Assembly (NCBI GenBank): GCA_041583775.1
Contig: JBFHFF010000003.1
Coordinates: 28,547 to 92,546 of the forward strand
Length of the DNA stretch: 64,000 nt
Direction of reading: 5' to 3'
DNA from: Candidatus Moraniibacteriota bacterium
Lineage (GTDB): Bacteria; Patescibacteriota; Minisyncoccia; Moranbacterales; DUUL01
Below are positions 2,434 to 64,000 of this stretch, piece after piece (within the stretch, counting starts at the first letter, position 1; each line of letters starts with the position of its first letter). The notes beneath the pieces were generated by a model, which saw only the letters and a program-made list of their open reading frames with translations, was not told where the DNA came from and did no database searches. The translations under genes were made by a program, and so were the position numbers.

Positions 2434-3885
2434 TTATTTCCATCTTGTGTAGCTGCTGAAATTGCTCCCAGTTGAAAGTGAAACATACCAACGTCCATCT
2501 GAGAAGAAAACAACAGCATCAGCCTTTTTATCATTATTAACATCAGCTAACATTTGATTTACTGATCCTGAGCCATGCCCACTTATCCATTGGGTGTAAC
2601 TGCCAAAAGAATTCCCAGTCGAAAGTGAAACATACCAACGTCCATCTGAGAAGAAAACCACAGCATCAGCTTTTCCGTCATTGTTAACGTCAGCTAAGAG
2701 TTGTCTTGTCGATCCAGAGCCATGCCCGCTTATCCATTTGGTATAAGTGCCAAGACTATAACCGAAACTACCTCCAGTCGAAAGTGACACATACCAACTG
2801 CCATTAAGGGCAAAAATTATAGAATCTTTTTTGCCGTCACCATTGACATCAGCAGTTAAAGATTTATCACCAGATTGTGGAATGTAAGCAATCTCTATCA
2901 TCGCAAATGTCGCTACAACCGTGTGGTTCTCGTTTGCATAAGAAACGGTGTATTGATCTGAAAATACTTGATCAATCACCGAAACACCGTTGTCTTTGAG
3001 TTCAGCTAGATAATACCCCTCACTGGCCGCTATGTTCAGCGTTGTGCTGCCCATATAGTCCAGTGCTACAAAACTTGGTGTTATCGAGCCACCATTTCCT
3101 GTGGTAGAAGCAGTTACTGAATAGCAACTACCGAAAACGGGCCTTATGATGTGGCTTTCAGCTGGACTATCAATGCTGTAGAAGCCATCAATAACCTGGT
3201 CGAAAACATCCATTTCGTTATCATACATACCGGTTAGGCACTTTCCAAAGTCTGGAGTTGTGTGAACCTCCATCCTTTCGCCTATGAATGAAGTTATATA
3301 GTCGATGGGGTAGATAGTCCCACCCTCAGCTTGCTGAGTATAAAGAACAATGTCTCCTGGTGCTCTTTGAAAGGTCACCGTGTCGGATTCTCCTCCCGAG
3401 AAGTTCGTCAAGTAATAAGTTTCTGACCCTTGGAATAGCTGTCCATTTACATCGATTACCGGCACGCAAGTACCAGTTTCAGTTTTTGACCCTAAATTTA
3501 TCGGGTTTTTGTTCTCTCCCCAGATAGTGTATGTGTTTGAACTCGCGGCAATTTTACCGCACACTATCTGGGAATACGGACCCATTTCTCCGTCCGATTT
3601 ATATGCTCTGATTGATAAGCATATCTCAGAACTATCAGGAACGGGCTCTAGTGTCACTGAAGTGACATTTCCCAACTTCACGGGTGAATCTCCTATTGAG
3701 AGACCCGTCCCATTGAACGGTTCTGTGTGTCCATCATCCAACCGGTACGAAATCTCATACCCAATCACCTCCGTGTCCGTGGCTGGAGTCCAAGAAAGCT
3801 CATACTCGCCTCCGAATGAACTGACTTGAAAAACTCCAAAAAACAGTACTGCTAACAATAAACTCAACATCCTTGTTTTTTTCAT
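2434..3885 (-). CDS. Secreted protein with an N-terminal fibronectin type III-like domain and three C-terminal FG-GAP/VCBS-like repeats
   Basis: Signal peptide MKKTRMLSLLLAVLFFGV. The FN3-like start reads SWTPATDTEVIGYEISYR. A ~48-aa unit is repeated three times almost identically, and a degenerate fourth copy lies upstream (ADVNGDGKKDSIIFALNGSWYVSLSTGGSFG). A strong Shine-Dalgarno (AAGGAGGAGG) precedes the start. Confidence 0.6.
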   Translation of the reverse strand: MKKTRMLSLLLAVLFFGVFQVSSFGGEYELSWTPATDTEVIGYEISYRLDDGHTEPFNGTGLSIGDSPVKLGNVTSVTLEPVPDSSEICLSIRAYKSDGEMGPYSQIVCGKIAASSNTYTIWGENKNPINLGSKTETGTCVPVIDVNGQLFQGSETYYLTNFSGGESDTVTFQRAPGDIVLYTQQAEGGTIYPIDYITSFIGERMEVHTTPDFGKCLTGMYDNEMDVFDQVIDGFYSIDSPAESHIIRPVFGSCYSVTASTTGNGGSITPSFVALDYMGSTTLNIAASEGYYLAELKDNGVSVIDQVFSDQYTVSYANENHTVVATFAMIEIAYIPQSGDKSLTADVNGDGKKDSIIFALNGSWYVSLSTGGSFGYSLGTYTKWISGHGSGSTRQLLADVNNDGKADAVVFFSDGRWYVSLSTGNSFGSYTQWISGHGSGSVNQMLADVNNDKKADAVVFFSDGRWYVSLSTGSNFSSYTRWK

Positions 3886-17102: not shown

Positions 17103-18738
17103 TTTTTTGTTTTATCTTTATTTCTTTTGTTGCATGAGAATCATTTTTTGAAAGGAAGAGTTCTTTTTCTAGCTCAACATCATCAATAAAATCCTTGTCA
17201 TGTGAAATCACGATTATTGTCCCCGCGTAATCTTTCAGGGTATTTGTTAGTTGTGTGATGCCATTTAAATCAAGATTATTATTTGGTTCATCGAGGATTA
17301 ATAAGTCAGGTGCGATATCAGTTGCTAAGAGGCAAGCGAAAGCAGCGCGTACTCTTTCTCCACCACTTAGAAATTTAACCTTTTTATGAATGTCATTGTC
17401 ATAAAAAAGAAATCTTCCAAGTTGAACTCGTAATTCATCTTCTGAAAGATGTTTTGGTGCGTAGTCAATCACATTTTGAAGAATTGTTTTTTCGTTTTTC
17501 AAAAGTGTAATATTTTGATCAATCACACCAACTCTAGTTGCTAAGCTGGTGATTTCTCCAACAACTGGATCAAGTTCTTTTGTGAGTAATTTAATGAGTG
17601 TACTTTTTCCAGAGCCATTTTTTCCAGCAAAATGCCAGCGTTCTCCTCCTAAGATTTTTAAAGATAGTTTTTTCTTCCAGAGGTTGTCGCCATTTTCAAA
17701 TTGGTAATTAACATTTTTTGCAAAAATAAGTTTTTCGCCCTTTTCTATTTCAGAAGGTCGAAGTTCAATGTGCATCATTCCTTCAGCTATAACCATCGCA
17801 CGAGTTTTAATTAATTCGTCTTTGGCTCTGTCAATGCATTTTGCATGAACCTTCTTTAATTTTTTGAAGGTTTCTTCGGCACGCATTTTACGACGATTGA
17901 TGAAGAATTTGGAGAAGTTTCTGGCCTTTGCTTTTCTGGCGCCAATTCTTGAATTTTCACGATGTGCGTCAAGAGTGTCTTCTTGTTTTTTAATTGCTTT
18001 TCTGTAATCCCTTTCTGCTTGTCGAAATGCGGTCATTTTTGCTTTTTTCTCAATATCCCTTTGTCTTCTGTAAAAATCAAAATTACCTCCATAAATTTCA
18101 ACTTTGTTTTTTCTGATTTCAACTATTTCATCCATTAAGCGTAACAATTGCCTGTCGTGACTGATAATCAAGAGCTTCCCAGGATAATTTTTTATAAAGC
18201 TGTATAAAAAATCACGAGATTCCTGATCCAAATGATTTGTCGGTTCATCCATCAATGCTAAATCAGGTTTTTTTGTAAGTAGGGAGGTGAAAAACAACTT
18301 TGATGTTTCTCCTCCACTTAAGGATGAAATTTTTCTATCAAAATCTAAATGTCCCAGAGCTGCTTTTTCTAGCAAAGCTTGAGTTCTTTCTTTAATCTCC
18401 CAGTCATCATCTAATATTAGAAGCTCTTTGTTTGTTCCAACACCCTCCATAATATGCTCCAATGCCTTTATTTTCTGGGTTATTCCAAGAACATCGCTTA
18501 CACTTTGGTGAGCAAAAGATGCGAAATTTTGTGGAAGTTCTAAGAAATTACCCTCCTTGTTAACTTTTCCTTTTTGAGGCTTTAATTCGCCCAAAATAAC
18601 CTTTAATAAGGTTGATTTACCTGTTCCATTTTCACCAACCAACCCAGTTCTGTTTTTTTTAACTGAAAAATTTAGACCAGAAAAAAGAACATCACCATTT
18701 TGGTGTTTGTAGGAAAGATCTTTGATAGATAAAAACAC
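17020..18738 (-). CDS. ABC-F family ATPase (two tandem ABC domains, EttA/Uup-like translation factor)
   Basis: Two Walker A motifs (GENGTGKST and GKNGSGKST) and two LSGGE signature motifs. The linker and the Lys-rich C-terminal tail are typical of ABC-F proteins. Confidence 0.8.
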   Translation of the reverse strand: MFLSIKDLSYKHQNGDVLFSGLNFSVKKNRTGLVGENGTGKSTLLKVILGELKPQKGKVNKEGNFLELPQNFASFAHQSVSDVLGITQKIKALEHIMEGVGTNKELLILDDDWEIKERTQALLEKAALGHLDFDRKISSLSGGETSKLFFTSLLTKKPDLALMDEPTNHLDQESRDFLYSFIKNYPGKLLIISHDRQLLRLMDEIVEIRKNKVEIYGGNFDFYRRQRDIEKKAKMTAFRQAERDYRKAIKKQEDTLDAHRENSRIGARKAKARNFSKFFINRRKMRAEETFKKLKKVHAKCIDRAKDELIKTRAMVIAEGMMHIELRPSEIEKGEKLIFAKNVNYQFENGDNLWKKKLSLKILGGERWHFAGKNGSGKSTLIKLLTKELDPVVGEITSLATRVGVIDQNITLLKNEKTILQNVIDYAPKHLSEDELRVQLGRFLFYDNDIHKKVKFLSGGERVRAAFACLLATDIAPDLLILDEPNNNLDLNGITQLTNTLKDYAGTIIVISHDKDFIDDVELEKELFLSKNDSHATKEIKIKQKNDPKSISQIASSKKYSEKVGDSNSKTN

Positions 18739-51023: not shown

Positions 51024-52985
51024 ATGCCAAAATCTTTAGTACTAGGAAACGGAAACATGCTTTTATGCTTTGACAACAAAGCGCGTGTTTGTGACTTTTA
51101 TTATCACTATGTTGGCTTGGAAAATCATGCTGGCAGTGGTTGTGTCCATAGAATTGGAATTATGATTGATGGTCAGTTTTCATGGATTGAAGAGTCTGCT
51201 TGGAAAGTTGAGATGGCGTATCAAAAAGACTCTTTAGTTTCAAAAGTTAGTATGAATAATGAGCAACTTGGAATCAGACTTAATTTTAGAGATGCGGTGT
51301 ATAATGAAAAGTGTATCTTTCTAAGAAAGGTTACTGTGGAAAATTTATGGGATAACAAGAGACAAATAAAAATATTTTTTCATCAACAATTTAGAATCTA
51401 TGATACTGAGAGAAGAGATACTGGTTATTATGATCCTGATAGAAAAGTAATAACTCACTATGAGGGGCGAAGAGTTTTTGTTGTTGGTGGAAGACAAGGG
51501 CAAAAGAGTTTTGATGATTATTGTGTTGGTAATTATGGCATTGAAGGCAAGATAGGGACCTGGAAAGATGCTGAAGATGGTATATTAGAAAAAAACCCAA
51601 TTGAGCATGGGCCAGTTGACTCTGTTATTGCCTTCACTTTCGAAGTTGAGGGGAATGGTAGAAAAACTGTTAATTATTGGATTGCTGCAGCTAAAGTATT
51701 AGCAGAAGCTAGGAATTTACATGAGTATGTTCTGGCAAGAACGCCCAATCATTTATTGGAATCAACAGAAGATTATTGGAGGGCTTGGGTGAATAAAAAT
51801 AAGATAGATTTTAAAAATCTGGATGAGGAATCAATTGATTTATTTAAAAGATCTTTATTGGTAATAAGTACACACTCAGGTAATGAAGGTGGGATAGTGG
51901 CATCCGCTGATTCAGATATGTTGCAATACGGGCGTGATACATATGCATATGTATGGCCAAGAGATGGAGCTTTTGTTGCCATGTCATTAATTCAAACTAA
52001 ACATTTTTCAATTGCCAGAAAGTTTTTTGAATTTTGTAATGATGTAATTAGTGAGGATGGTTATTTCTTTCATAAATATCGAAGTGATAAATCAATCGGA
52101 AGTTCTTGGCATCCTTGGTCTAGAGACGGGAAAAAACAACTTGCAATTCAAGAAGATGAAACTGCTTTAATATTGTATTCGCTTTGGGAGTATTATGAGG
52201 CAAGTTTAAATATCGAATTTATTGAAAGTGTTTATAACTCATTGATTAAAAAAGCAGCTGAGTTTATGTATCACTATCGAGATAAAAGAACTGGCTTGCC
52301 AAAAGAGAGTTATGATTTATGGGAGCAAGATTACGGGATATCAACATTTACTTCCAGTACAGTGTATGGGGGTCTTATGGCAGCAAGTAAGTTTGCTGAA
52401 GTGCTTGGTAAAGAGGAGGACGCAAAGAAATATAGTCACGAAGCAGAGGAAATAAAAACTCTTATTATAAAATATTTGCATAACAGCAATAATGGTTATT
52501 TTTACAAGAGAATTACTTCGAGTAAAGAGGATTTTGGTTTTGATGACACGATTGATATCAGTAGTTTTTTCGGTTTGTTTTATTTTGGTATAATTGACAT
52601 TGACGATCCGATGCTTGGTGATGCTTTTGATGTCGTTGAAAGAGAACTTTTTTGTAAAACTAAAATTGGTGGAGTGATGAGATATGTTGGTGATAAATAT
52701 CACCAAGTTCATAATGATATGACCGGAAATCCATGGATTATTACAACTCTTTGGGTTGCTCAATATCGAATAAAGAAGGCAAAAAATATTAATGATTTAA
52801 ATGAAGTTAAAAATATTTTTAAATGGGTTTGTGATAGAATGACAACTGCAGGTATTTTGCCGGAACAGGTAAATTCAGACACGGGAGAGCATCTTTCTGC
52901 GGCACCGCTTACATGGAGCCATTCTGAATATGTGACAACAGTTATTCAATATTTAAACAAAAGAGAAGAAATCGAGAATCATTAG
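51024..52985 (+). CDS. GH15 family glucoamylase/glucodextranase-like enzyme (archaeal-type, with N-terminal beta-sandwich domain)
   Basis: (alpha/alpha)6-barrel region with YVWPRDGAFVAMSL and LWEQDYG-type acid/base blocks typical of GH15. N-terminal GNGNMLLCFD domain. 653 aa. Confidence 0.6.
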   Translation: MPKSLVLGNGNMLLCFDNKARVCDFYYHYVGLENHAGSGCVHRIGIMIDGQFSWIEESAWKVEMAYQKDSLVSKVSMNNEQLGIRLNFRDAVYNEKCIFLRKVTVENLWDNKRQIKIFFHQQFRIYDTERRDTGYYDPDRKVITHYEGRRVFVVGGRQGQKSFDDYCVGNYGIEGKIGTWKDAEDGILEKNPIEHGPVDSVIAFTFEVEGNGRKTVNYWIAAAKVLAEARNLHEYVLARTPNHLLESTEDYWRAWVNKNKIDFKNLDEESIDLFKRSLLVISTHSGNEGGIVASADSDMLQYGRDTYAYVWPRDGAFVAMSLIQTKHFSIARKFFEFCNDVISEDGYFFHKYRSDKSIGSSWHPWSRDGKKQLAIQEDETALILYSLWEYYEASLNIEFIESVYNSLIKKAAEFMYHYRDKRTGLPKESYDLWEQDYGISTFTSSTVYGGLMAASKFAEVLGKEEDAKKYSHEAEEIKTLIIKYLHNSNNGYFYKRITSSKEDFGFDDTIDISSFFGLFYFGIIDIDDPMLGDAFDVVERELFCKTKIGGVMRYVGDKYHQVHNDMTGNPWIITTLWVAQYRIKKAKNINDLNEVKNIFKWVCDRMTTAGILPEQVNSDTGEHLSAAPLTWSHSEYVTTVIQYLNKREEIENH

Positions 52986-53042
52986 ATATTGGTTTAAAAA
53001 GATAAATTTAGAATATAATTTAAAAGTAAGTAGATTATACAA

Positions 53043-53276
53043 ATGAAAATCAAAATTGATCAAGAAAGGTGCGTTGGTTGTGGTAGGTGCGCGGAGATGT
53101 GTCCATCAGTTTTTAAATTAAACGAAGAGGGGAAAGCGATTGTGCTTAATGATAAAATAGAGGAGTGTGAACAGGAGCCAACAGGAGAAGAGTGTGCAAT
53201 TGTTAGTGATGTTGTTAAGAAAACTGCTGATGAATGTATTGTTGAGGCGATCGATATCGATATGGAAATAAGTTAA
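53043..53276 (+). CDS. Small [4Fe-4S] ferredoxin
   Basis: CVGCGRCAEMCP cluster motif plus a distal Cys. 77 aa and acidic. Confidence 0.6.
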   Translation: MKIKIDQERCVGCGRCAEMCPSVFKLNEEGKAIVLNDKIEECEQEPTGEECAIVSDVVKKTADECIVEAIDIDMEIS

Positions 53277-53321
53277 ATTTTTCAACAATATTTAAAATTA
53301 TCTCTAGAATTATTATAAATT

Positions 53322-53350
53322 AAAAAACCCAAAAAATCTGGGTTTTTTAA
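53322..53350. terminator. Bidirectional rho-independent terminator (AAAAAACCCA-aaaaatct-GGGTTTTTT)
   Basis: Inverted repeat with flanking A/T runs, between convergent ferredoxin (+) and gpmI (-). Confidence 0.65.
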
Positions 53351-53395
53351 TTTATAGTATAAGATTAGACGACAAAGTGAGTCTTTTTTTAAAAA

Positions 53396-54985
53396 TTATT
53401 GTTTCGTTGATAGTACATCCAAAAGATCTTGTCCTGTCATTTCTGGGTCTCTCTGGATTTCTAGCAATTTTAAAATTGTAGGTGCAAGGTCAACTAACAT
53501 TCCTTCAATTGGAGGGAGTGAGACCTCTTCCAATGGCTGGTTACGATGATTAGTGGCATTGACATACCAGCAAGGGACGGGGTTGGTTGAGTGTTCCGTG
53601 TCTCTTTCTCCCGTTCTTAGATTTACCATTTCCTCAACATTGCCATGATCAGCTGTTATTATAAGACAACCATTTTCTTCTAGTACAGTTGTAATCAATC
53701 TGTCGAGACATTTATCAGTTACTTCAAGAGCCTTAACTGCAGCGTTTATGTCACCAGTATGTCCAACCATATCAGGGTTGGCATAATTTACTAAAATAAA
53801 ATCATAGTTTTTGTTTTTATTTCTGATTGCTTCAATGAGCTTATCTGTCACTTCATGGGCACTCATTTCTGGAATTTCAGCATAAGAAGAGACACTTTTT
53901 GAGAGAACTGGGATTCGATCTTCCCCCTTGTATGGTTTTTCTGTCCCACCGTTAAAAAAATAAGTAACATGAGCAAATTTTTCTGTTTCAGCAATTCTAA
54001 GTTGAGAAAGTCCATTTTCTTCAAATATTTGTCCTAGTCTTGTAGTAATTTCTTGAGCAGGAAAGGCGATGTTTTCGCAAAGACCTTTTTCATACTCAGC
54101 AAAACAAGCGAAAAATAAATTTTCAACCCTTTTTGCTTTTTCAAAATTTTTAAAATCTTTTTCTTCAAAAGCTTGTGTGATTTGTCTTGCTCGATCTTTT
54201 CTGAAATTGAAAAAAATTACCGCATCATTTTCTTTGATGTTTCCAACCGGTTCACCATTTGAGTCTGTTATTACAATTGGCTTGATATACTCATCCGTTA
54301 CATCCTCATTATATTGTTTTTTTATTCCTTCTATGGGATCAACTTCTTTAACTCCCTCACCTTCTGTCATCGCCCTGAATCCCTTTTCAATTCGGTCCCA
54401 ATTTGTATTTCTGTCCATTGTGAAATACCTTCCAGTGAGACTTGCAATTTTACCAACTCCTAAGCTAGCAGATTTTTTTTGTATTTTTTGAATAAAATCA
54501 ACAGCAGCCTTTGGGGCAGTATCGCGCCCATCTGTGATTCCATGGATGAATACATTCTCAAGCTTTTGTTCACTTGCAAATTCCAATAGTGCACTTAGAT
54601 GATCTATGTGAGAATGTACAGCACCGTTGCTGATCATTCCCATAAAATGAAGGTTGGAGTTGTGTTTTTTTGTCCATTCAACGGCTTCTAGGAAAACATC
54701 ATTTTTGAAGAATTTACCATTTTCAATAGCGGCTGTAATGACGGGCAGGAATTGATAGATAATTTGACCAGTTCCCATTGTTTGATGTCCAACCTCAGAA
54801 TTTCCATAAATTCCCCAAGGTAAACCGACAGACATTCCAGACGCCTGAAGTAATGTCTTTGGGTAATATCTGTTTAATTTGTCAATTGTTGGTAGGTTGG
54901 AGATTGGTATTGGATTTCCTTGCTGATTATTCCATTCACCCCAACCATCAAGCACAACAAGTACAACAGGCTTTTGTTTCGCCAT
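53396..54985 (-). CDS. gpmI: 2,3-bisphosphoglycerate-independent phosphoglycerate mutase
   Basis: iPGM N-terminal block (VLVVLDGWG) and metal-binding/phosphoserine region (TADHGN). 529 aa. Confidence 0.85.
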   Translation of the reverse strand: MAKQKPVVLVVLDGWGEWNNQQGNPIPISNLPTIDKLNRYYPKTLLQASGMSVGLPWGIYGNSEVGHQTMGTGQIIYQFLPVITAAIENGKFFKNDVFLEAVEWTKKHNSNLHFMGMISNGAVHSHIDHLSALLEFASEQKLENVFIHGITDGRDTAPKAAVDFIQKIQKKSASLGVGKIASLTGRYFTMDRNTNWDRIEKGFRAMTEGEGVKEVDPIEGIKKQYNEDVTDEYIKPIVITDSNGEPVGNIKENDAVIFFNFRKDRARQITQAFEEKDFKNFEKAKRVENLFFACFAEYEKGLCENIAFPAQEITTRLGQIFEENGLSQLRIAETEKFAHVTYFFNGGTEKPYKGEDRIPVLSKSVSSYAEIPEMSAHEVTDKLIEAIRNKNKNYDFILVNYANPDMVGHTGDINAAVKALEVTDKCLDRLITTVLEENGCLIITADHGNVEEMVNLRTGERDTEHSTNPVPCWYVNATNHRNQPLEEVSLPPIEGMLVDLAPTILKLLEIQRDPEMTGQDLLDVLSTKQ

Positions 54986-55076
54986 AGAGTTTTGTTTTTT
55001 AAAACATATATTCTTAATATTGAAAAAAGAATATTAGTTTATTTTAATATAATTCAAAATTTATTTTTTGATATTT

Positions 55077-55532
55077 TTAATTTTCAATTACTTCCTCTTC
55101 TTTTTTGATTTCAGTTTCTGTTTCTAACTCAATTGGTTCTGGCGCTTTTTGTGGTGAAGGTTTTTCGTCAATTTGTTTGGCGCTTGTTTTTTTGAAGGAA
55201 ACTGCAAAATTAGGTTCGTATAAATTGTTGTATTCATCAACAACTTCAATCGGTTTGCCTTCCATTAAAGTTGTCATCGCTATGTCACTTTGGATTTGTT
55301 TTAAATCTGCAATTGTTAGTTTTAAATCTTCAATTTTATCCCAGCGACTTCCCATTTGGGATTGTGTAATTGTTTCAAGTTCCTTTTTTCGCATTTTTAG
55401 CTCCTCTAACTGTTCGGATAATTCTTGATATTCTTGATTTTGTCCTAGAGCATCTTTGTATTCAGAGCGAATTTCAGATTGTTCTCTTTTTGCTTCTTTC
55501 AATTCATTGAAGATTTCTTGAATCTCTTTCAT
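55077..55532 (-). CDS. Hypothetical coiled-coil protein
   Basis: Heptad-rich Glu/Lys/Gln sequence of 151 aa. No motif recognised. Confidence 0.35.
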   Translation of the reverse strand: MKEIQEIFNELKEAKREQSEIRSEYKDALGQNQEYQELSEQLEELKMRKKELETITQSQMGSRWDKIEDLKLTIADLKQIQSDIAMTTLMEGKPIEVVDEYNNLYEPNFAVSFKKTSAKQIDEKPSPQKAPEPIELETETEIKKEEEVIEN

Positions 55533-55674
55533 TTTTGTTTTTTTAAAACTTGGTTAAAAATAAAACTCTCTTGATATTTTTTAAAATATCTTAAAGTAGT
55601 TTTTAGTAAAATTTCAAATATAATTATATCTTATTTTTTTGCCCTGAACAAATTCTAGATAAGGGTAAAGAATG

Positions 55675-56460
55675 TTATTTTTCAATAAGTGTTATTTTTT
55701 CAATAATAACAGGTTCTGTTGGTCTGTCTCCTGATTGAGTTGGAGTTGTTTCTATCTTTTTAACAACATCCATACCGTTAGTGACAAAGCCAAAATTTGT
55801 ATGCTTTCCATCCAACCAACTAGTCTCATCTTTTGTGACGATGAAAAATTGTGAACCATTTGTGTCTGGACCAGAGTTTGCCATAGCAAGAGATCCACTT
55901 ATCAACTTATGAGAGTTTATCTCGTCAGGAAAAGAATAGCCAGGGTCACCAGTTCCCCAGGTATTTGGTGCATTATCATTTTTCGAATTTTGATCTCCTG
56001 CCTGAATCATAAAATCTTCTATGACTCTATGGAATTTTGTATTATCATAAAAGCCCTCACTCGCTAATTTCATAAAATTATTTACAGTAGCAGGGGAGTC
56101 ATCTGAATAAAATTCAACTTCAATTTTTCCAAAATTTGTCTCAATTTGAGCTCCTTTATATTTGTCTTTATAGTCTAATGATGACAATTCCGTTAGTTCC
56201 ATTGTTTTTTTTGTTAGTTGTTTATTTGCAGAATCTTGTGAAGTCTGTGTTTTTGAGGAACTCTGAGTTTGTTTTTTAGTTCCCAAAGCTTCTTGTTGTC
56301 TTTTTTGTTGCGCTTCTAATTCGTATTCGCTTATTTTAGAATTTTTATTTTCTCCGATGTTTTTTCCTGTAATTTTTTCATTTGGTAAATTTGAGGAAGA
56401 ACACCCAGATATAATTAGAGCAAAAAGCCCTAAAAATGCACCATTTACTAGTATTTTCAT
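55675..56460 (-). CDS. Lipoprotein peptidyl-prolyl cis-trans isomerase (cyclophilin type)
   Basis: Lipobox (LIISGCSS) and a cyclophilin core (FHRVIEDFMIQAGD...GSQFFIV). Confidence 0.8.
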   Translation of the reverse strand: MKILVNGAFLGLFALIISGCSSSNLPNEKITGKNIGENKNSKISEYELEAQQKRQQEALGTKKQTQSSSKTQTSQDSANKQLTKKTMELTELSSLDYKDKYKGAQIETNFGKIEVEFYSDDSPATVNNFMKLASEGFYDNTKFHRVIEDFMIQAGDQNSKNDNAPNTWGTGDPGYSFPDEINSHKLISGSLAMANSGPDTNGSQFFIVTKDETSWLDGKHTNFGFVTNGMDVVKKIETTPTQSGDRPTEPVIIEKITLIEK

Positions 56461-56727
56461 TTTTATTTCAGTAATATTAATAAATAAGACATTAAATAGT
56501 ATAGACTATTTTCTTTTTATAATCCAGTGCTAAAATTTTAAAAGTTAATAAAACCTGTTTAAGGATTGACTTTTATTGGACAATACCCCATAATATAATT
56601 GTATGTAAGGTTATACGGTTTTTTCTGATAAGATTTGGACTTAGTGTGTGCGATTTTTGTTGCCAAATTAATTTAGACAAACAGATAACGGAACTTGCAA
56701 ACAGGTATAAATTTTTTAAGTGTACAC

Positions 56728-57021
56728 ATGGAACAAGAAGTTAACAAGAAAAAACTTTTCGTAGGAAACATTAGCTACGGAGTAACAGATGAATCATTAG
56801 CAGAACATTTTGCACAAGTTGGAACAGTTGAATCAGCAAAGATCATCGTTGATAAAATGACTGGTCGTTCAAAAGGATTCGGATTCGTTGAAATGTCAAC
56901 TGAAGAAGAGGCTCAAAAAGCAATTGCTGAGTTAGATCAAAAAGAACTTGATGGACGAGAATTGAATGTAAATGAAGCTCAACCACCAAAGAGACATTAC
57001 GAAAATAGAGGGAATTTCTAG
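56728..57021 (+). CDS. RRM-type RNA-binding protein. The track ORF begins at 56695; the internal Met at MEQEVNKKKLFVGN is more likely.
   Basis: RNP-2 (KLFVGNISY) and RNP-1 (KGFGFVEM) motifs. Confidence 0.7.
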   Translation: MEQEVNKKKLFVGNISYGVTDESLAEHFAQVGTVESAKIIVDKMTGRSKGFGFVEMSTEEEAQKAIAELDQKELDGRELNVNEAQPPKRHYENRGNF

Positions 57022-57556
57022 ATATTGTCTATCTGAGGACATGGAGGGAAAAGACAGGGAGCGCACAGCCCTGTTTTTGTTTGCTTGAAAATTGAAATAT
57101 CCAGAACAATATAAAGGTTTATAGGGTTGGTAATGTTTGTAAAGTTAGGATGTATGATAAATTCCAAATTCCAATTTACAATTTATGTTGAATTTTCAAT
57201 AAAAAATTCAACATAACAACTAAACGAAGGAGGTTGTCATTCCCGAGAAGTTGGGAATCTATTGGAATGAATAACGAAAAATATAGCACGAGACGCAAAA
57301 GCCATGCTTTTTTGTATTAAGAAAGATTCAAGCTAGAATGGTTTGTACCAAAAATTACTAAATATAGCATAATGGATCCCCATATGCACGGGGATGAAAA
57401 ACCAAAACATGCGTGTATTAGAAAATTTGCGTTGGAGCGGGTTTGTAACCCAGTCCCATATTTCAAGTCAACATTGTTGTATCTTCACTATGTCTTAAGA
57501 TAAAAGGTCTGAGTTACGAACTCTGACTATCACAAAAACAGGATTAACTTAAAATA

Positions 57557-57590
57557 AAAGGTACCTCTAAAGGTACCTTTTATTTTGTTG
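57557..57590. terminator. Bidirectional rho-independent terminator (AAAAGGTACC-tctaa-GGTACCTTTT + T-run)
   Basis: Perfect 10-bp inverted repeat, 10 nt downstream of the stop of the minus-strand gene 57601..57930. It also closes the long non-coding stretch that begins at 57040. Confidence 0.7.
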
Positions 57591-57600
57591 AAAAGAAATT

Positions 57601-57930
57601 CTATTTTGGTCGAATTGCAACTAGAATTGAGGTTATTGTGAGTCCTGCAAATCCCCCGTATAACAATGCTTGGATGTTTGTGATTTTTAACTTAGCAATA
57701 TCAAGATAAGCCAAAGCTGAAGTCAATAAAAGGAGTATAAATAAAGTGAAGAATATTTGATAGACTGGCACAACTTCTTTTTTTGTTTCAAATAAGAAAG
57801 GGAGCACTGCTAGAAAAAGAGCAGTTGCAGCAAAAGACCACATAAAGAAATTAAAAAAATCACTTTCAAATAGATTTATTGTGGCAATGAATCCGCAAGC
57901 GATCGGAATAAGAAGGATAATAATTCGCAT
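57601..57930 (-). CDS. Hypothetical small membrane protein (3-4 TM)
   Basis: Hydrophobic 109-aa ORF with a terminator immediately downstream. Confidence 0.35.
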   Translation of the reverse strand: MRIIILLIPIACGFIATINLFESDFFNFFMWSFAATALFLAVLPFLFETKKEVVPVYQIFFTLFILLLLTSALAYLDIAKLKITNIQALLYGGFAGLTITSILVAIRPK

Positions 57931-58072
57931 TTTGTTTTATTTATTCTGAATGTCATTATTATAACATTTATTTGAGGGAAATAAAATAAGAAGAGCACTC
58001 CTTGAAAAAAACCATTAATTGGGATAAGCTTATCAATGATCGTTAGATGAATTTTAAACAAAATCACATATT

Positions 58073-61000
58073 ATGAAAAAAGGAAGAATTGTTCCACAAT
58101 ATAATTTTGCTAAAATCGAGAAAAAATGGCAAAAATCTTGGCAAGAGAAAAAAGTTTATGAGGTTGATATAAATAACGCCAAAAAACCTTTTTATAATTT
58201 GATGATGTTTCCGTATCCTTCAGCAGAAGGGTTGCATGTTGGAGGAGTTTATACTTATACGGGAGTTGATGCTTTTGGAAGATTTAAAAGAATGCAAGGG
58301 TATGATGTTTTTGAGCCAATGGGGTTAGATGGTTTTGGAATTCATAGTGAAAATTATGCAATGAAAATTGGTGAACACATTGATGATGTTTCAAAGCGAA
58401 CAGAGAAAAACTTTTATCGACAACTTTCTTCAATTGGAAATATGTTTGATTGGTCAAGAACAGTTGAGACCTATAAACCAGAGTACTACCGTTGGACGCA
58501 ATGGTTGTTTTTGCAACTTTTTAAAAAAGGATTGGCATATCAAAAGAAAGCCAAAGTGAATTGGTGTCCTTCTTGTAAAACTGTTCTTTCTGATGAACAA
58601 GTGATTCAAGGGCAATGTGAGCGATGTGACAGTTTTGTAGAAAAAAGAGAATTAAAACAATGGTTTTTTCGTATCACAAAATATGCAGATCGACTTTTGA
58701 AAAATTTAGATTGGATTGATTGGCCAGAAGATGTAAAAACTAATCAAAGAAATTGGATTGGTAAAAGCGAGGGGGCAAATATCAAGTTTCAAGTTGAAGT
58801 TGCTGGTGAGAACAAGGGTGAATTGGAAGTTTTTACAACTCGTCCAGATACGCTTTTCGGTGCGACTTATATGGTTTTAGCTCCAGAACACGAATTAGTT
58901 CAAAGTGCAAAAGAGGTTATTGAAAATTGGAGTGAGGTGGATAAATATGTCAAAAAAGCAATTAGCAAATCGGAGCAGGAAAGAAAAAATGATGAGAAAA
59001 CTAAAACAGGGGTTGAGTTGAAAGGAATCTCGGCTATCAACCCTGCAAGTGGGGAAAAAATCCCTGTTTGGGTTGCTGACTATGTCTTGGCAGGATATGG
59101 AACAGGAGCAATTATGGCTGTTCCAGCACATGATGCTCGTGATTTTGAATTTGCAAAGAAATTTGGTATTGAAGTTAAATGTGTTGTTGAACCTAAAGAT
59201 TCCAAAACAGGACTTATTTTTAGACTAGGTACTCCAAAAGAGGATCCACAAGAAAAATTAGAAAAAATTTATAAAGGAGAGGAATGTTATGAGGGACTTG
59301 GTGTTTCAATGAATTCAGGATTTTTAAATGGAAAATCAACAACCGAAGCGAAAGCCGAAATGTTGGAATGGTTGGAGAAAAAAAATGTTGGTAAAAAATC
59401 AATTGACTTTAAACTTCGAGATTGGTGTGTTTCTCGTCAGAGATATTGGGGACCTCCAATTCCGATTGTGTGGTGCAAAGAATGTGCGAAGAATCAAAAC
59501 AAACGAAAAGTTTTGATGATTCACGGATTTGAAGGCGTTGGAGACGGAAATTGGTTTCCTCACCTAAAAAAAGAGCTTGAAGAAAAAGGTTGTGAGGTCT
59601 TCACTCCAACATTAGAAACTAATACCAAGCCAGATTTAGAACAATGGATGAAACAATTAAAGCCATATTTGGACAAGTTGGACGAAAATAGTGTTATTAT
59701 TGGTCACAGCCTTGGTTCAAAGGCAATTTTGCATTTATTGGAAGGAAACAAACAAAAAGTTGATAAAATTTTCTTAGTCGCTTCCGCAATTGGCAATCTA
59801 AAGAGAGATTGGAAATGGTTGGCAGATCGATGGAAAAATTCAGATGTAGAGTCTTTGCGCAAATTCTGGGAAGCAGAATTGGATTGGAGCAAGATCAATC
59901 CAAAAGTGAATGAATCTTTTGCAATCGTTTCAAAAGATGATCTATATGTTGATGTTAGTAATTATGAAGCGATGGAGCTTGATGGTTTGAATGTTGAAAT
60001 TTGGGATGGACATAGACACTTTCAACAAACAGAAAATGCTGCATTAAAAGATTTTATTTTCGAAAACCTATTTAGTAATAGCGAAGCGGTTGCAGTTCCT
60101 GTTCCAGACAATCAGTTGCCAGTAAAATTGCCGCCAATGAAAGATTTTCTCCCTGAAGGAACCGGGAAAGGTCCTTTGGCAAAGAATGCTGAGTTTGTGA
60201 AAACAACTTGCCCTGTTTGCGGGGCTGACGCAGAAAGAGAAACTGATGTTTCGGATCCTTTTGTGGATTCTTCTTGGTATTTTTTTAGATATCCGTCAAC
60301 AGAGTTTGATGATGTTGCTTTTGATAAAGAAAGGACTAAGAAATGGCTTCCCGTAGACAGCTATATTGGTGGCAAAGAACACACAGTTTTGCATCTTTTG
60401 TATTCTAGATTTATAACTATGGTGCTTAAGGATTCGGGATATATTGATTTTGATGAGCCATATAAAAAATTCTTTGGGCACGGATTGATTACTAAAGAAG
60501 GTGCTAAAATGTCAAAATCAAAAGGAAATGTTGTAAATCCAGATGTTATGATTGAAAAATATGGGGCTGATACAACAAGAATGTATTTGAGATTTTTAGG
60601 AGACTTTTCTCAGGGAGGGGATTGGCGAGATTCTGGAATAGAAGGTATGAATAGATTTACGAAAAGACTTTGGTCACTCTTTTTTGAACTAGAAGGAAAT
60701 GGAAAAGGGGTTGATGATTTTTCAATGATAGATAAAACAATTAAAGTTGTTGGCGAGGACTTGGAAAAACTTTCATTTAATACTGCCGTTGCTCGTTTGA
60801 TGGAGTTTGTGAATTGGGTAAAAGAGAATAAAAATCAATTCAATGAAAAACAAGTTAAAAAAATCAAAGAAACGATGGCACTTATATTTGCCCCGATGAT
60901 GCCACATATAGCAGAGGAATTTTGGCAAGAAATTGGAGGGGAAAGCTTTGTTTGTGAGCAAAGATGGCCAAACTATGATAAGGACAAAATCATTGATAAT

Positions 61001-61186
61001 GAGATTGAACTTGTGATTCAGGTAAATGGAAAACTTCGAGATAAAATCAAAACACCACGAGATATTACTGAAAATGAAGCAAAAAAAATATCTTTGGAAA
61101 GCGAAAATATACAGAAATTTATCAATGGGAAAGAAGTAAGAAAAGTAATATATGTGCCAGGAAAGCTTGTGAATATAGTTATTTAA
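58073..61186 (+). CDS. leuS: Leucyl-tRNA synthetase carrying an inserted ~200-aa YdeN/RBBP9-type alpha/beta serine hydrolase domain (about 59486..60094), with HIGH motif variant HVGG
   Basis: LeuRS blocks throughout: FPYPSAEGLHVGG, the first zinc knuckle CPSCKT...CERCDS, the CP1 editing domain with TTRPDT and AVPAHDARDFEFA, then RDWCVSRQRYWGPPIPIV, VPDNQLPVKLPP, GAKMSKSKGN and the anticodon-binding C-terminus. After WCKEC lies a complete Ser-hydrolase fold (VLMIHGFEGVGDGNWFPHL...VIIGHSLGS...IFLVASA...SKDDLYVDV...WDGHRHFQ) before CPVCGA. Confidence 0.85.
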   Translation: MKKGRIVPQYNFAKIEKKWQKSWQEKKVYEVDINNAKKPFYNLMMFPYPSAEGLHVGGVYTYTGVDAFGRFKRMQGYDVFEPMGLDGFGIHSENYAMKIGEHIDDVSKRTEKNFYRQLSSIGNMFDWSRTVETYKPEYYRWTQWLFLQLFKKGLAYQKKAKVNWCPSCKTVLSDEQVIQGQCERCDSFVEKRELKQWFFRITKYADRLLKNLDWIDWPEDVKTNQRNWIGKSEGANIKFQVEVAGENKGELEVFTTRPDTLFGATYMVLAPEHELVQSAKEVIENWSEVDKYVKKAISKSEQERKNDEKTKTGVELKGISAINPASGEKIPVWVADYVLAGYGTGAIMAVPAHDARDFEFAKKFGIEVKCVVEPKDSKTGLIFRLGTPKEDPQEKLEKIYKGEECYEGLGVSMNSGFLNGKSTTEAKAEMLEWLEKKNVGKKSIDFKLRDWCVSRQRYWGPPIPIVWCKECAKNQNKRKVLMIHGFEGVGDGNWFPHLKKELEEKGCEVFTPTLETNTKPDLEQWMKQLKPYLDKLDENSVIIGHSLGSKAILHLLEGNKQKVDKIFLVASAIGNLKRDWKWLADRWKNSDVESLRKFWEAELDWSKINPKVNESFAIVSKDDLYVDVSNYEAMELDGLNVEIWDGHRHFQQTENAALKDFIFENLFSNSEAVAVPVPDNQLPVKLPPMKDFLPEGTGKGPLAKNAEFVKTTCPVCGADAERETDVSDPFVDSSWYFFRYPSTEFDDVAFDKERTKKWLPVDSYIGGKEHTVLHLLYSRFITMVLKDSGYIDFDEPYKKFFGHGLITKEGAKMSKSKGNVVNPDVMIEKYGADTTRMYLRFLGDFSQGGDWRDSGIEGMNRFTKRLWSLFFELEGNGKGVDDFSMIDKTIKVVGEDLEKLSFNTAVARLMEFVNWVKENKNQFNEKQVKKIKETMALIFAPMMPHIAEEFWQEIGGESFVCEQRWPNYDKDKIIDNEIELVIQVNGKLRDKIKTPRDITENEAKKISLESENIQKFINGKEVRKVIYVPGKLVNIVI

Positions 61187-61203
61187 TAATTCTGTTTTGG
61201 TAG

Positions 61204-63075
61204 ATGAACACTGAAAAGAAAAGAAAAAAGAAGAAAATTTTAGACCAAATTAATTTTCCACGAGATATCAAAAAAGTAGCAGAAGGGGATTTGAAAATTC
61301 TTTGTAACGAAGTTCGCAATTTTGTTATTGAAACAGTTTCAAAAACAGGCGGGCATTTTGGTTCTAATTTAGGTGTTGTAGAACTAACAGTTGCTTTGCA
61401 TCGTGTCTTTGATACACCAAGAGATCTTTTGGTTTGGGATGTCGGACATCAAGCCTATCCTCACAAAATACTCACCGGGAGAAAAGATCAGATGTGTACT
61501 ATTCGAAAAAAAGGAGGGCTTTCTCCATTTCCTCGGAGAAGTGAAAGTGAATATGATGCTCTTAGTGTGGGACACTCAAGCACTTCAATTAGCGCTGCAA
61601 TTGGAATGGCTCTTGCGAATAAAGGTGAAGTGAAGCCACCAAAAGTAATTGCCGTTATTGGCGATGCAGCACTTACGGGAGGAATGGCGATGGAAGCGCT
61701 TAATCATGCAGGGGATACAAAGGCTGATATTCTTGTCGTGCTTAATGATAATAAAATGTCAATTTCTCCGAATGTAGGAGGAATGAGGAAATATCTTACA
61801 AGAATTATTTCATCAGAACCTTATTTGAAACTAAGAGATAAGGGTGAGAAGGCCTTGGATAAATTTTCTCCTAAGATACAAGATTTAGTTCGCAGGGCGG
61901 ATTCGTATACCAGGGGACTTATAACGAGAGGGACTTTGTTTGAGGAGTTGGGCTTTAAATATTATGGACCAATTGATGGTCATGACATCGAACTTCTTAC
62001 TCAAGTTTTGGAAAATTTAAAGAAAATTGAGGGTCCTAAACTTTTGCATTTGGTAACAACAAAAGGGAAAGGATGTAAATTTGCAGAGGATGACGAATTC
62101 TCTTTGCATGCTGTTAAGCCCTTCGATCCAGTTACTGGGAAAAGATGTGAGAATAAAAAGCCAAAATTAACTTATACAAAAGTTTTTTCAGAGTGGGTTT
62201 GTGATAAGGCCAAAGATGATAAAAATTTACATGCTATTACTCCAGCGATGTGCGAGGGGTCTGGTTTGTCTGAATTTAGCCATAAATTTCCCAACAGATA
62301 TCATGATGTCGGAATTGCTGAACAACATGCAGTGACTTTTGCTGCAGGAATTGCTTGTGAAAAAAAGAAGCCAGTTGTAGCAATATATTCATCTTTCTTG
62401 CAACGGGCATATGATCAGCTTATTCATGATGTTGCGTTGCAAAAACTAGATATACTTTTTGCAATTGATAGGGCGGGAATCGTTGGAGCTGATGGAGCTA
62501 CTCATACCGGAGGATTTGATCTAGCTTTTTTACGCTCCATTCCAGAATTTATTGTGATGGTTCCATCTTCTGAAGATGAATGTTTTGCGATGCTTGATTT
62601 TGGTTATCATCAAGCAGGTCCAGTAGCGGTTAGATATCCACGAGGATGTGGTAATGGAGAATATCAAAATAAAAAGACAGTTTCAATTGAACTTGGAAAG
62701 GCTAAGATTCTATCTCGGGGGAAAAAGATTGCAATATTGGCCTTTGGTCCAATGGTAGAGATTTCTAGAAAAGCAGTGGAAAAACTAGGAGCAACTCTGG
62801 TGGATATGAGGTTTGTTAAACCTTTAGATGAGAAATTATTAAAAAAGCTTGCAAAAACACATAAATATTTTATTACGGTTGAGGATGGTGTAGTTTTGGG
62901 AGGTGCTGGAAGTGCAATTAATGAATTTGTGATGAAGGAGAAATTAAGTGTAAAGGTTGATAATCTTGGACTTCCTGATTGTTTTGTTTCACATGGGAGA
63001 AGGGAGGAAATTCTAGAAGAGGTAGGGCTTTCGAAAGATGGCATTTTGAAGAGTGTAAGAGAATTTGTGGGGTAG
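61204..63075 (+). CDS. dxs: 1-deoxy-D-xylulose-5-phosphate synthase
   Basis: The N-terminal LCNEVRNFVIETVSKTGGHFGSNLGVVELTVALH block is DXS-specific. ThDP-binding GDAALTGGMAMEALNHAG. Transketolase-like C-terminal domains. 623 aa. Confidence 0.9.
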   Translation: MNTEKKRKKKKILDQINFPRDIKKVAEGDLKILCNEVRNFVIETVSKTGGHFGSNLGVVELTVALHRVFDTPRDLLVWDVGHQAYPHKILTGRKDQMCTIRKKGGLSPFPRRSESEYDALSVGHSSTSISAAIGMALANKGEVKPPKVIAVIGDAALTGGMAMEALNHAGDTKADILVVLNDNKMSISPNVGGMRKYLTRIISSEPYLKLRDKGEKALDKFSPKIQDLVRRADSYTRGLITRGTLFEELGFKYYGPIDGHDIELLTQVLENLKKIEGPKLLHLVTTKGKGCKFAEDDEFSLHAVKPFDPVTGKRCENKKPKLTYTKVFSEWVCDKAKDDKNLHAITPAMCEGSGLSEFSHKFPNRYHDVGIAEQHAVTFAAGIACEKKKPVVAIYSSFLQRAYDQLIHDVALQKLDILFAIDRAGIVGADGATHTGGFDLAFLRSIPEFIVMVPSSEDECFAMLDFGYHQAGPVAVRYPRGCGNGEYQNKKTVSIELGKAKILSRGKKIAILAFGPMVEISRKAVEKLGATLVDMRFVKPLDEKLLKKLAKTHKYFITVEDGVVLGGAGSAINEFVMKEKLSVKVDNLGLPDCFVSHGRREEILEEVGLSKDGILKSVREFVG

Positions 63076-63139
63076 GAGTAAAAGTGAATATTATATGTTT
63101 ATTATATAATAATGAGAAATTAATATTTTCGTTATTGTT

Positions 63140-63172
63140 TAAGTCATGAAAATATTTAAAAACATGACTTTG
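63140..63172. promoter_or_regulatory. Inverted repeat AAGTCATG-n17-CATGACTT in the cas12a upstream region (candidate operator or leader hairpin); a TATAAT box lies at 63243..63248
   Basis: Perfect 8-bp inverted repeat directly visible. A TTATAATG -10-like element sits about 30 nt before the Cas12a ATG. Confidence 0.3.
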
Positions 63173-63279
63173 ATTGGCAATGTTTATATCCATTCCAAAG
63201 TTGTTTTATTTGTATATTTAGTAAAAATAGTTAAAAAGAGTTATAATGTATTTGATTATAAACCTTTAACAACAAAAAG

Positions 63280-64000
63280 ATGGATCCTCAAATGTTTAAA
63301 GATTTTACAAATCTCTACGAATTATCTAAGACACTTAGATTTGAATTAAGGCCGACAGGTAAAATAATTGATTCTATAGATTTAAAAACAGGAGAGATCA
63401 AAAAGATAACAATGACCGAAAAGATGTTATTGGAGAACGGGGTTTTTGATAATGACAAGTTAATTCAGGAAAAATATAAAAAAACGAAACCATATTTTGA
63501 TAGATTGCACAGAGAATTTGTTGAAGAATCGTTGTCGGATATTTTACTAAGAGAATTAGATGATTATGAAATCATTTTATCTGATTGGAAAAAGGATAAA
63601 AAAAATAAAGATAAACAAAAAAGATTACAAATTAAGGAAGCTGAATTAAGAAAGCAGGTGGTTAATTTTTTTAATGAAAAAGCGAGAGAGTGGATTCAGC
63701 GATATAGCAACTTGAGGTTTAAAGGTGAGGGAGTAGAATTGTTTTTTGAAGAAGGTGTATTTGCTTTACTAAAGGAAAAATATGGAAAAGAGGATGATGC
63801 AAATATTAAAAACGAGAAGTTTAATAAAGTTGTTTCGATTTTTGATTCTTGGAGGGGTTTTACTGGGTATTTTAAAAAATTTCAAGAAACAAGAAAGAAT
63901 TTTTATAAGGATGATGGTACATCTACAGCATTGGCTACAAGAATAATTGATCAAAATTTAAGAAGATTTACTGATAATTTGCAAGATTTTAAAAGAGTTA
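63280..64000 (+). CDS. cas12a: Type V-A CRISPR effector Cas12a (Cpf1), N-terminal ~240 aa; the gene continues beyond the window end
   Basis: Translation MDPQMFKDFTNLYELSKTLRFELRPTGKI... carries the Cas12a N-terminal hallmark (F-T-N-L-Y-x-L/V-SKTLRFEL-x-P-x-GKT). Later FTGYFKKFQETRKNFYKDDGTSTALATRIIDQNLRRF matches the Cas12a WED/REC1 block (T/S-x-F-x-x-x-RKN-x-Y/F...STA..(H/T)RI(V/A)D-N...F). It is absent from the ORF track only because it is truncated by the window edge. Confidence 0.85.
   Translation, partial: MDPQMFKDFTNLYELSKTLRFELRPTGKIIDSIDLKTGEIKKITMTEKMLLENGVFDNDKLIQEKYKKTKPYFDRLHREFVEESLSDILLRELDDYEIILSDWKKDKKNKDKQKRLQIKEAELRKQVVNFFNEKAREWIQRYSNLRFKGEGVELFFEEGVFALLKEKYGKEDDANIKNEKFNKVVSIFDSWRGFTGYFKKFQETRKNFYKDDGTSTALATRIIDQNLRRFTDNLQDFKRV

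Follow-up and report, generated by a model that had tools for sequence, protein, structure and literature searches.

The cas12a gene at the window edge

The stretch of DNA analysed here, hereafter the window, comprises 64,000 nt of contig JBFHFF010000003.1 (assembly GCA_041583775.1) from a Candidatus Moraniibacteriota bacterium of the candidate phyla radiation (CPR), and its right edge cuts through a gene for Cas12a, a CRISPR-Cas nuclease. The reading frame is open on the forward strand from 63280 to 63999, 240 codons without a stop up to the window edge, with a translation that begins MDPQMFKDFTNLYELSKTLRFELRPTGK and an ATG at 63280, 204 nt past the dxs stop at 63075. The features of this end of the window are as follows.

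61204..63075, + strand: dxs, 623 aa, left flank of the inserted CRISPR-Cas module; in the relatives L007 and L008 an FtsA-like gene follows it directly
63076..63279, + strand: dxs-cas12a intergenic region, presumed cas12a promoter and 5′ untranslated region, at the left edge of a low-GC insertion of ~6.5 kb
63280..64000, + strand: 5′ part of cas12a, codons 1-240 (WED-I and most of REC1); nothing else of the locus falls within the window
63304..63363, + strand: N-terminal Cas12a (WED-I) motif FTNLYELSKTLRFELRPTGK, codons 9-28, matched in alignments by the N-terminal ends of solved Cas12a structures and by those of 25 members of the clade
63364..63414, + strand: 17-residue insertion IIDSIDLKTGEIKKITM, codons 29-45, between WED-I (LSKTLRFEL motif) and REC1, lineage-specific
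63871..63960, + strand: REC1 block FKKFQETRKNFYKDDGTSTALATRIIDQNL, codons 198-227, a signature common to the whole CPR Cas12a clade

An earlier note on this DNA, made from the letters of the window, had called the start of a Cas12a gene on the strength of an N-terminal signature and a downstream block, and both are present as it quoted them, at residues 9-28 and 198-227, respectively. The 240-residue fragment is matched by NCBIfam TIGR04330 (cas_Cpf1; E=1e-33, 116 bits), a score that lies under the 300-bit cut-off because just 240 of ~1300 residues are present, by Pfam REC1 (PF18501, E=1.8e-25) and by 26 solved Cas12a chains with E values from 1.8e-21 to 2.2e-6. This resemblance is far beyond chance, and the open reading frame at the window end is a genuine Cas12a start. 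As a query the fragment retrieved short N-terminal fragments only, and the full-length protein was needed to reveal the family.

Extension beyond the window edge

The exact Dxs protein (61204-63072) was looked up in public assemblies, which led to two Logan contigs. The first, L001, covers 21.9 kb (record positions 4686-26557) out of a 42,457-bp contig of SRR29257461 and agrees with window positions 51204-64000 with 0 mismatches over 12,797 nt; the second, L002, is a whole 8,905-bp contig from SRR29257458 and is identical to L001 throughout. A window coordinate is the L001 coordinate plus 51203. On L001 the cas12a frame reaches 1359 aa; three genes coding for 181, 317 and 92 aa come next, then a gap of 515 nt and an FtsA-like gene, which gives the following layout (window-equivalent positions in brackets).

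L001 12077-16156 (63280-67359): full cas12a, 1359 aa
L001 16228-16773 (67431-67976): cas4, 181 aa
L001 16790-17743 (67993-68946): cas1, 317 aa
L001 17750-18028 (68953-69231): cas2, 92 aa
L001 18029-18246 (69232-69449): leader, 218 nt
L001 18171-18236 (69374-69439): conserved leader hairpin
L001 18247-18282 (69450-69485): repeat 1
L001 18283-18310 (69486-69513): spacer
L001 18311-18346 (69514-69549): degenerate repeat 2
L001 from 18544 (from 69747): FtsA-like gene

Each of the three adaptation genes scores above its curated cut-off, cas4 on TIGR04328 (type-V Cas4; 214 bits versus 70), cas1 on TIGR04329 (type-V Cas1; 325.7 bits versus 300) and cas2 on TIGR01573 (Cas2; 47.7 bits versus 24.5). The earlier note had expected a type V-A locus to begin at the window edge, with cas4, cas1, cas2 and the array just beyond it, and had named an early stop, or missing RuvC and Nuc domains, as what an extended contig would reveal if the gene were a remnant. 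The extension bore out the expectation: the frame passes the window end with RuvC and Nuc in place, and the V-type cas4-cas1-cas2, a leader and an array follow directly.

The Cas12a protein

The full-length protein scores 788.2 bits on TIGR04330 against the cut-off of 300, and its Pfam domains comprise REC1 (67-322), Cpf1_PI-like (730-806) and RuvC_1 (928-1358), the last enclosing NUC (1115-1292); no other family was matched in the Pfam scan, and no HNH. The RuvC residues that the earlier note had asked to be compared with FnCas12a are all present, D917/E1006/D1255 of FnCas12a aligning to D950/E1035/D1310, and the Nuc arginine R1218 aligns to R1254. The AsCas12a contacts to the protospacer-adjacent motif (PAM), K548/K607/M604, are kept as K617/K679/M676, the lysines lying within GWDKNKE and MIPKCST.

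Two insertions mark the protein. The N-terminal insertion IIDSIDLKTGEIKKITM is common only to this Cas12a and to its closest relative, P0037; 24 other clade members lack it, as do, in alignments with PDB entries, solved Cas12a chains, FnCas12a and AsCas12a among them. The second, of ~25 residues, lies in the Nuc domain in the alignment with FnCas12a.

The CRISPR array

Repeat 1 is 36 nt long, CTCTAATCCATATATAAGATTTCTACTTTTGTAGAT, with the 3′ end TCTACTTTTGTAGAT, and it folds into a UCUAC/GUAGA stem of 5 bp closed by a 4-nt UUUU loop (-4.8 kcal/mol). This fold matches the published V-A repeat motif UCUAC[N3-5]GUAGAU, of which the 4-nt loop is the commonest form (PMC7757703), and the ~36-nt direct repeat with a 5′-handle stem that the earlier note had told us to look for is thereby found, as a UCUAC-N4-GUAGAU handle. 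The repeat is followed by a spacer of 28 nt, CCAACTGACGGCAGTGGGCGGCTTTTTT, with a G+C content of 57% in a 34% host genome, which hints at a foreign origin. Repeat 2 equals repeat 1 for its first 27-28 nt and is degenerate at its 3′ end, where the handle stem is impossible. The search for an anti-repeat or trans-activating CRISPR RNA gave a sole inverted match, of 13/14 nt; it falls in a conserved, AT-rich box of the leader (L001 18078-18091) and is by our estimate at chance level for an AT-rich region of 800 nt. The spacer itself can fold into a small hairpin (CCA.CUG/CAG.GG) and has six T at its end, and in this it resembles a weak intrinsic terminator that would set the 3′ end of the only CRISPR RNA (crRNA).

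No CRISPR repeat or Cas12a-handle-like motif was found anywhere in the 64-kb window, including upstream of cas12a, and scans for sigma-70 promoters and terminators around cas12a and in the leader gave chance-level matches, the exception being a TG-extended -10 ahead of ftsA that is conserved in relatives. The intergenic region holds a perfect 8-nt inverted repeat, AAGTCATG-N14-CATGACTT (63141-63148 and 63163-63170), ~110 nt before the cas12a start, which could be an operator or the stem of a dxs terminator.

The leader hairpin

Within the leader of L001, positions 18171-18236 (~66 nt) fold into a hairpin of -19.5 kcal/mol (z = -2.6), and the same architecture is present in 18 distinct leaders from metagenome loci. 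A P1 stem of 15-22 bp closes on AAAAG/CUUUU and encloses an invariant GUCG, a P2 hairpin of 4-7 bp and an invariant UUUGYAUC, in the order P1-GUCG-P2-UUUGYAUC-P1′, and the whole element always stands 27-29 nt, or one spacer-length, upstream of repeat 1. The loci that bear it are the following.

Hairpin-bearing loci: L001, L003, L090, L092, L093, L115, L123, L124, L129-L134, L157, L161, L169, L170, L172, L173, L283-L285

The P1 arms vary in sequence between loci yet stay complementary, cognate distal arms pairing at a mean of -15.6 kcal/mol versus -7.3 for non-cognate arms, and P2 also covaries. In alignment A2, 87.3% of cells pair versus 70.7 +/- 1.3 in shuffled versions, none of 500 of which reached the observed value, and double changes occur at 15 of the 20 pairs versus 8.2 expected; slid controls of the same alignment pair at 35-59%. 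Two signs suggest an RNA in the crRNA sense, namely the G-U pairs at covarying positions and a folding energy that is lower for the array strand. A covariance model, R1, detects the element in these leaders only, and it recovers the hairpin between cas2 and repeat 1 (39.6-59.4 bits) in three loci that were fetched independently by protein similarity, among them a Campbellbacteria metagenome-assembled genome (MAG) and a complete Peregrinibacteria genome.

Rfam gave sub-threshold chance matches only over the leader and array region (mir-2059, 23.9 bits versus 90; rliE) and no family for the hairpin, and the element is not described in the papers on V-A repeat-like elements (10.1101/2023.03.10.532045; 10.1101/2023.03.03.530964). 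Two further ideas about the element were rejected. Copies in viral contigs amounted to 103 pattern matches, about the number estimated by chance, of which the best covariance-model scores were 24-36 bits, with no stems and no arrays; and a self-targeting, crRNA-like guide, set aside as the primary reading, would have a pseudo-repeat without the UCUAC/GUAGA stem and a would-be protospacer flanked by CGAC, not TTTV. Upstream of the hairpin lie a conserved AAACC..GTCTTTAT box, which overlaps a small variable hairpin, and an GTATAAAT box. The leaders of arrays with GTTTAGAA-type repeats show a different layout, of three hairpins.

Relatives, host and insertion of the module

The closest non-self Cas12a is P0037 (MFZ2188163.1), from a Candidatus Moraniibacteriota MAG, at 65% identity, and no public protein exceeds that value save the same gene in other assemblies. 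More than 100 further Cas12a proteins match over their full length at 48-59% identity and every named one is from a CPR phylum, with Peregrinibacteria, Campbellbacteria, Uhrbacteria, Gottesmanbacteria, Dojkabacteria and Roizmanbacteria also represented; the block FxKFxETRKNFYKxDGTSTAxATRIIDQNL is common to the whole clade. A cluster look-up of the close homologues gave none labelled as PbCpf1 (Parcubacteria bacterium GW2011_GWC2_44_17), the published Parcubacteria enzyme to which the earlier note had likened this one. On these similarities our protein is placed as a new orthologue in a populated, already known clade. The 3′ 25-nt part of the repeat is found in 93 metagenome loci with arrays of 1 to 57 copies, and the complete arrays among the relatives fetched by protein similarity have 29 and 48 repeats. 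In three of these four related loci, genes with Bro-N, RhuM or Fic domains adjoin cas12a (L282 10903-15856; L283 1718-2566; L284 5662-6669), and in L282 their place is between cas12a and cas4, alongside a protein of 1009 aa without a family match.

The leucyl-tRNA synthetase (LeuRS) of the window shares 94% identity with its counterpart in a Candidatus Moraniibacteriota MAG, counted over the portion present on that contig, and 62-88% with those of other Moranbacteria and Patescibacteria genomes, a similarity by which the host is assigned to the Moraniibacteriota (Parcubacteria/CPR). The description of the gene as Parcubacteria-type in the earlier note is right in this broad sense, the host being a Moraniibacteriota member and all named close relatives of the protein coming from CPR/Patescibacteria. 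Its remark that CRISPR-Cas is rare in such lineages agrees with the published figure of 2.4% of Parcubacteria/Microgenomates (PMC6509639), and Cas12a has been recognised in Parcubacteria, Dojkabacteria and Roizmanbacteria since 2015 (PMC6509639).

In the two closest genomes with enough flanking sequence, L007 (UBA2772) and L008 (SI034_bin78), the genes for LeuRS, Dxs and the FtsA-like protein are directly adjacent and there are no cas genes; a spacer of ~155 nt separates the adjoining genes, and the portion of it nearest ftsA recurs, conserved, in L001. Six 1-kb windows over the cas module have a G+C content of 25-28% (27% for the module) versus 31-38% in the flanks (34.5%). Because dxs and ftsA are adjacent in both relatives and the G+C content of the module is low, the ~6.5 kb between these genes are a lineage-specific insertion, most simply explained by horizontal gain.

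Elsewhere in the window, LeuRS (58073-61186, 1037 aa) contains an internal Ser_hydrolase (PF06821)/alpha-beta-hydrolase domain at about residues 474-675. This insertion-bearing form (3.1-3.5 kb) recurs in the closest Moranbacteria/Patescibacteria relatives, L006-L010, and alignments with more distant CPR LeuRS skip residues of the hydrolase insertion; in L003, a separate Ser_hydrolase gene adjoins a class-I aminoacyl-tRNA synthetase gene (PF00749, tRNA-synt_1c). At 2466-2753, a 147-nt unit is tandemly duplicated (2 copies, 85% identical) inside a 483-aa minus-strand open reading frame (2434-3885).

Discussion

We propose that the gene at the window end is an intact cas12a that opens a complete type V-A module of ~6.5 kb, cas12a-cas4-cas1-cas2-leader-array, between dxs and ftsA of a Moraniibacteriota bacterium, a reading that we hold to be very probable. 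It is directly supported by the integrity of the gene, the domain architecture, the RuvC, Nuc and PAM-contact residues, the structure of the repeat, the V-type adaptation genes and the context of the insertion. Judged from these sequences the locus is probably a working one, its PAM, processing, cleavage and current activity being assigned by analogy with the family. Under such a model, the leader would drive a pre-crRNA, whose repeat would be bound by Cas12a at the 3′ stem-loop (UCUAC-UUUU-GUAGA-U) and cut upstream of that stem-loop. This would yield one crRNA, consisting of a ~20-nt handle and the spacer CCAACUGACGGCAGUGGGCGGC..., and the guided Cas12a would then bind double-stranded DNA beside a predicted T-rich 5′ PAM and cleave it in the single RuvC site with the assistance of Nuc. 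New spacers would be added at the leader-repeat junction by Cas4-Cas1-Cas2.

Several observations weigh against a working system. The array holds a single spacer and then a degenerate repeat, which makes for a minimal immune memory in this assembly, and that spacer found no target: the exact 22-mer had 0 matches in both IMG/VR and the JGI metagenomes, there were 0 matches in the window with up to 3 mismatches allowed, BLASTN against GenBank phages and PLSDB plasmids returned chance-level partial matches only (E>=0.4), and a scan for partial and seed matches over 73 kb of the host, the cas12a promoter included, gave no target. In addition, the FnCas12a residues for pre-crRNA cleavage, H843/K852/K869, are without positional equivalents in the alignment with this Cas12a. 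K869 aligns to D903 and there is no His at H843, with H904 and several Lys nearby; the WED-III segment that bears the FnCas12a triad is 11-15 residues shorter here, and 'LIK869DKRF' of FnCas12a reads 'VID903-H904-KRY'.

The corresponding segment (residues 882-907, L001 14720-14797) is without positional equivalents of H843 and K869 in the whole CPR clade. It takes three forms across the clade, ...V(I/V)(D/N)HKRY, ...AF(H/Q)K(N/R)R(Y/F) and ...I(I/V)(K/N)(N/K)KRY, and the position after K869 is basic (H/K/R) throughout, H904 being conserved in many members and replaced by K or R in others. Since relatives in this clade keep long canonical arrays, pre-crRNA processing is probably retained with shifted residues. 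Several roles are conceivable for the leader hairpin: it could give the pre-crRNA a structured leader at its 5′ end, be what was once a repeat-spacer unit, now fixed and serving in cis as a leader RNA, separate the array from the cas operon as an insulator or attenuator, or act as a ruler or spacing signal for spacer integration. We put forward, as a tentative proposal that is rather less likely to hold than to fail, that the hairpin functions as an RNA component of CPR V-A systems, one not described before, and that the Cas12a of these systems has a relocated His/Lys set for RNase activity.

Of the readings that depart from a complete module with a one-spacer array, the one that survives best holds that this array is unrepresentative, other cells or the other sample carrying longer arrays of which the contig is one simple path, and we consider this a substantial possibility, if somewhat short of an even chance. 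A k=31 de Bruijn assembly such as Logan breaks where several different upstream sequences lead into one full repeat. L002, from SRR29257458, ends at L001 18276 (window-equivalent 69479), inside repeat 1 and exactly 31 nt after the first base common to both repeats, and this suggests that more copies of the repeat, and hence more spacers, exist in that sample. At least 4 copies of the identical 36-nt repeat are present in L090, moreover, one of the 93 metagenome loci. L001, by contrast, passes through the array unbroken in SRR29257461, and L090 belongs to a different species, its cas2 having ~79% nucleotide identity.

The pattern of repeat, spacer and degenerate repeat could also be a regulatory mini-array of the CreR type, not immune memory but a guide whose partial complementarity would let Cas12a repress a promoter of the host or of the cas genes. 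The V-A creR of Moraxella bovoculi has the same architecture, in that its first repeat is intact and bears a full handle and its second repeat is extensively degenerated (10.1101/2023.03.10.532045). We nevertheless regard this as improbable: the element occupies the normal position of an array behind a conserved leader and is not upstream of cas12a, where there is no handle-like motif; neither the cas12a promoter (window 63000-63330) nor the rest of the 73 kb holds a seed or partial match to the spacer, the best non-self match being 11-12/16 without a seed; and the G+C content of the spacer suggests a foreign origin. That the locus is a decaying remnant, with a truncated or catalytically dead cas12a of a lost system, is more improbable still, for while the array holds a single spacer and the locus of the closest relative, L003, has lost cas4, cas1 and cas2 and has mutated repeats, so that decay does occur in this lineage, the 1359-aa frame is uninterrupted in two assemblies, every RuvC, Nuc and PAM-contact residue is kept, cas4, cas1 and cas2 are all above curated cut-offs and repeat 1 forms a perfect canonical handle.

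Read as a complete module, the locus adds one more Cas12a system for Moranbacteria, a CPR lineage in which CRISPR-Cas is uncommon, and offers a clean case of gain by insertion between housekeeping genes, useful for understanding how episymbionts with reduced genomes acquire and lose defence. An orthologue at most 65% identical to other public proteins, with canonical catalytic and PAM residues, is also a candidate nuclease for tool screening. To specialists the system itself will be unsurprising, Parcubacteria Cas12a being familiar since 2015 and public data already containing CPR homologues in the hundreds; the value for discovery lies in the covarying leader hairpin of CPR V-A arrays and in the non-canonical RNase segment of the clade.

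Comparison with known systems

FnCas12a, AsCas12a and LbCas12a (5NFV, 5B43, 5XUS and others) agree with the protein described here in the order of their domains and in the RuvC D/E/D, Nuc Arg and PAM Lys/Met residues, FnCas12a matching its C-terminal 509 aa with E=6e-90 and AsCas12a its WED-II/PI region with E=1e-68. Unlike these three proteins it carries the N-terminal and Nuc insertions, and it is missing the HPA...IANKN motif of the FnCas12a RNase-triad segment. The handle of the FnCas12a repeat is AAUUUCUACUGUUGUAGAU, from which that of repeat 1 differs only in the loop and the 5′-most base.

Repeat-like elements of V-A loci have been described upstream of cas12a (Liu et al. 10.1101/2023.03.10.532045) and as standalone repeat units beside cas12a (Shmakov et al. 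10.1101/2023.03.03.530964). V-A CreR likewise consists of an intact repeat, a spacer and a degenerate repeat, but it lies upstream of cas12a, whereas the element here comes after cas2 behind a leader and is without complementarity to the cas12a promoter.

The locus of P0037 (L003) has a near-identical repeat, with 25 of its 3′ nucleotides identical to repeat 1, but its array of 11 repeats is without cas4, cas1 and cas2 and occupies another genomic site than our module, so that it looks like a locus no longer able to acquire spacers. There (L003 8001-13017), cas12a lies between a PD-(D/E)XK gene and Rrf2, and several of the repeats are point-mutated. Three of the four relatives fetched by protein similarity (L283-L285) share the order cas12a-cas4-cas1-cas2-array with the module described here. 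CPR type V-A relatives likewise have the short WED-III segment and the leader hairpin; the single spacer of its array is among the features in which this locus differs from them.

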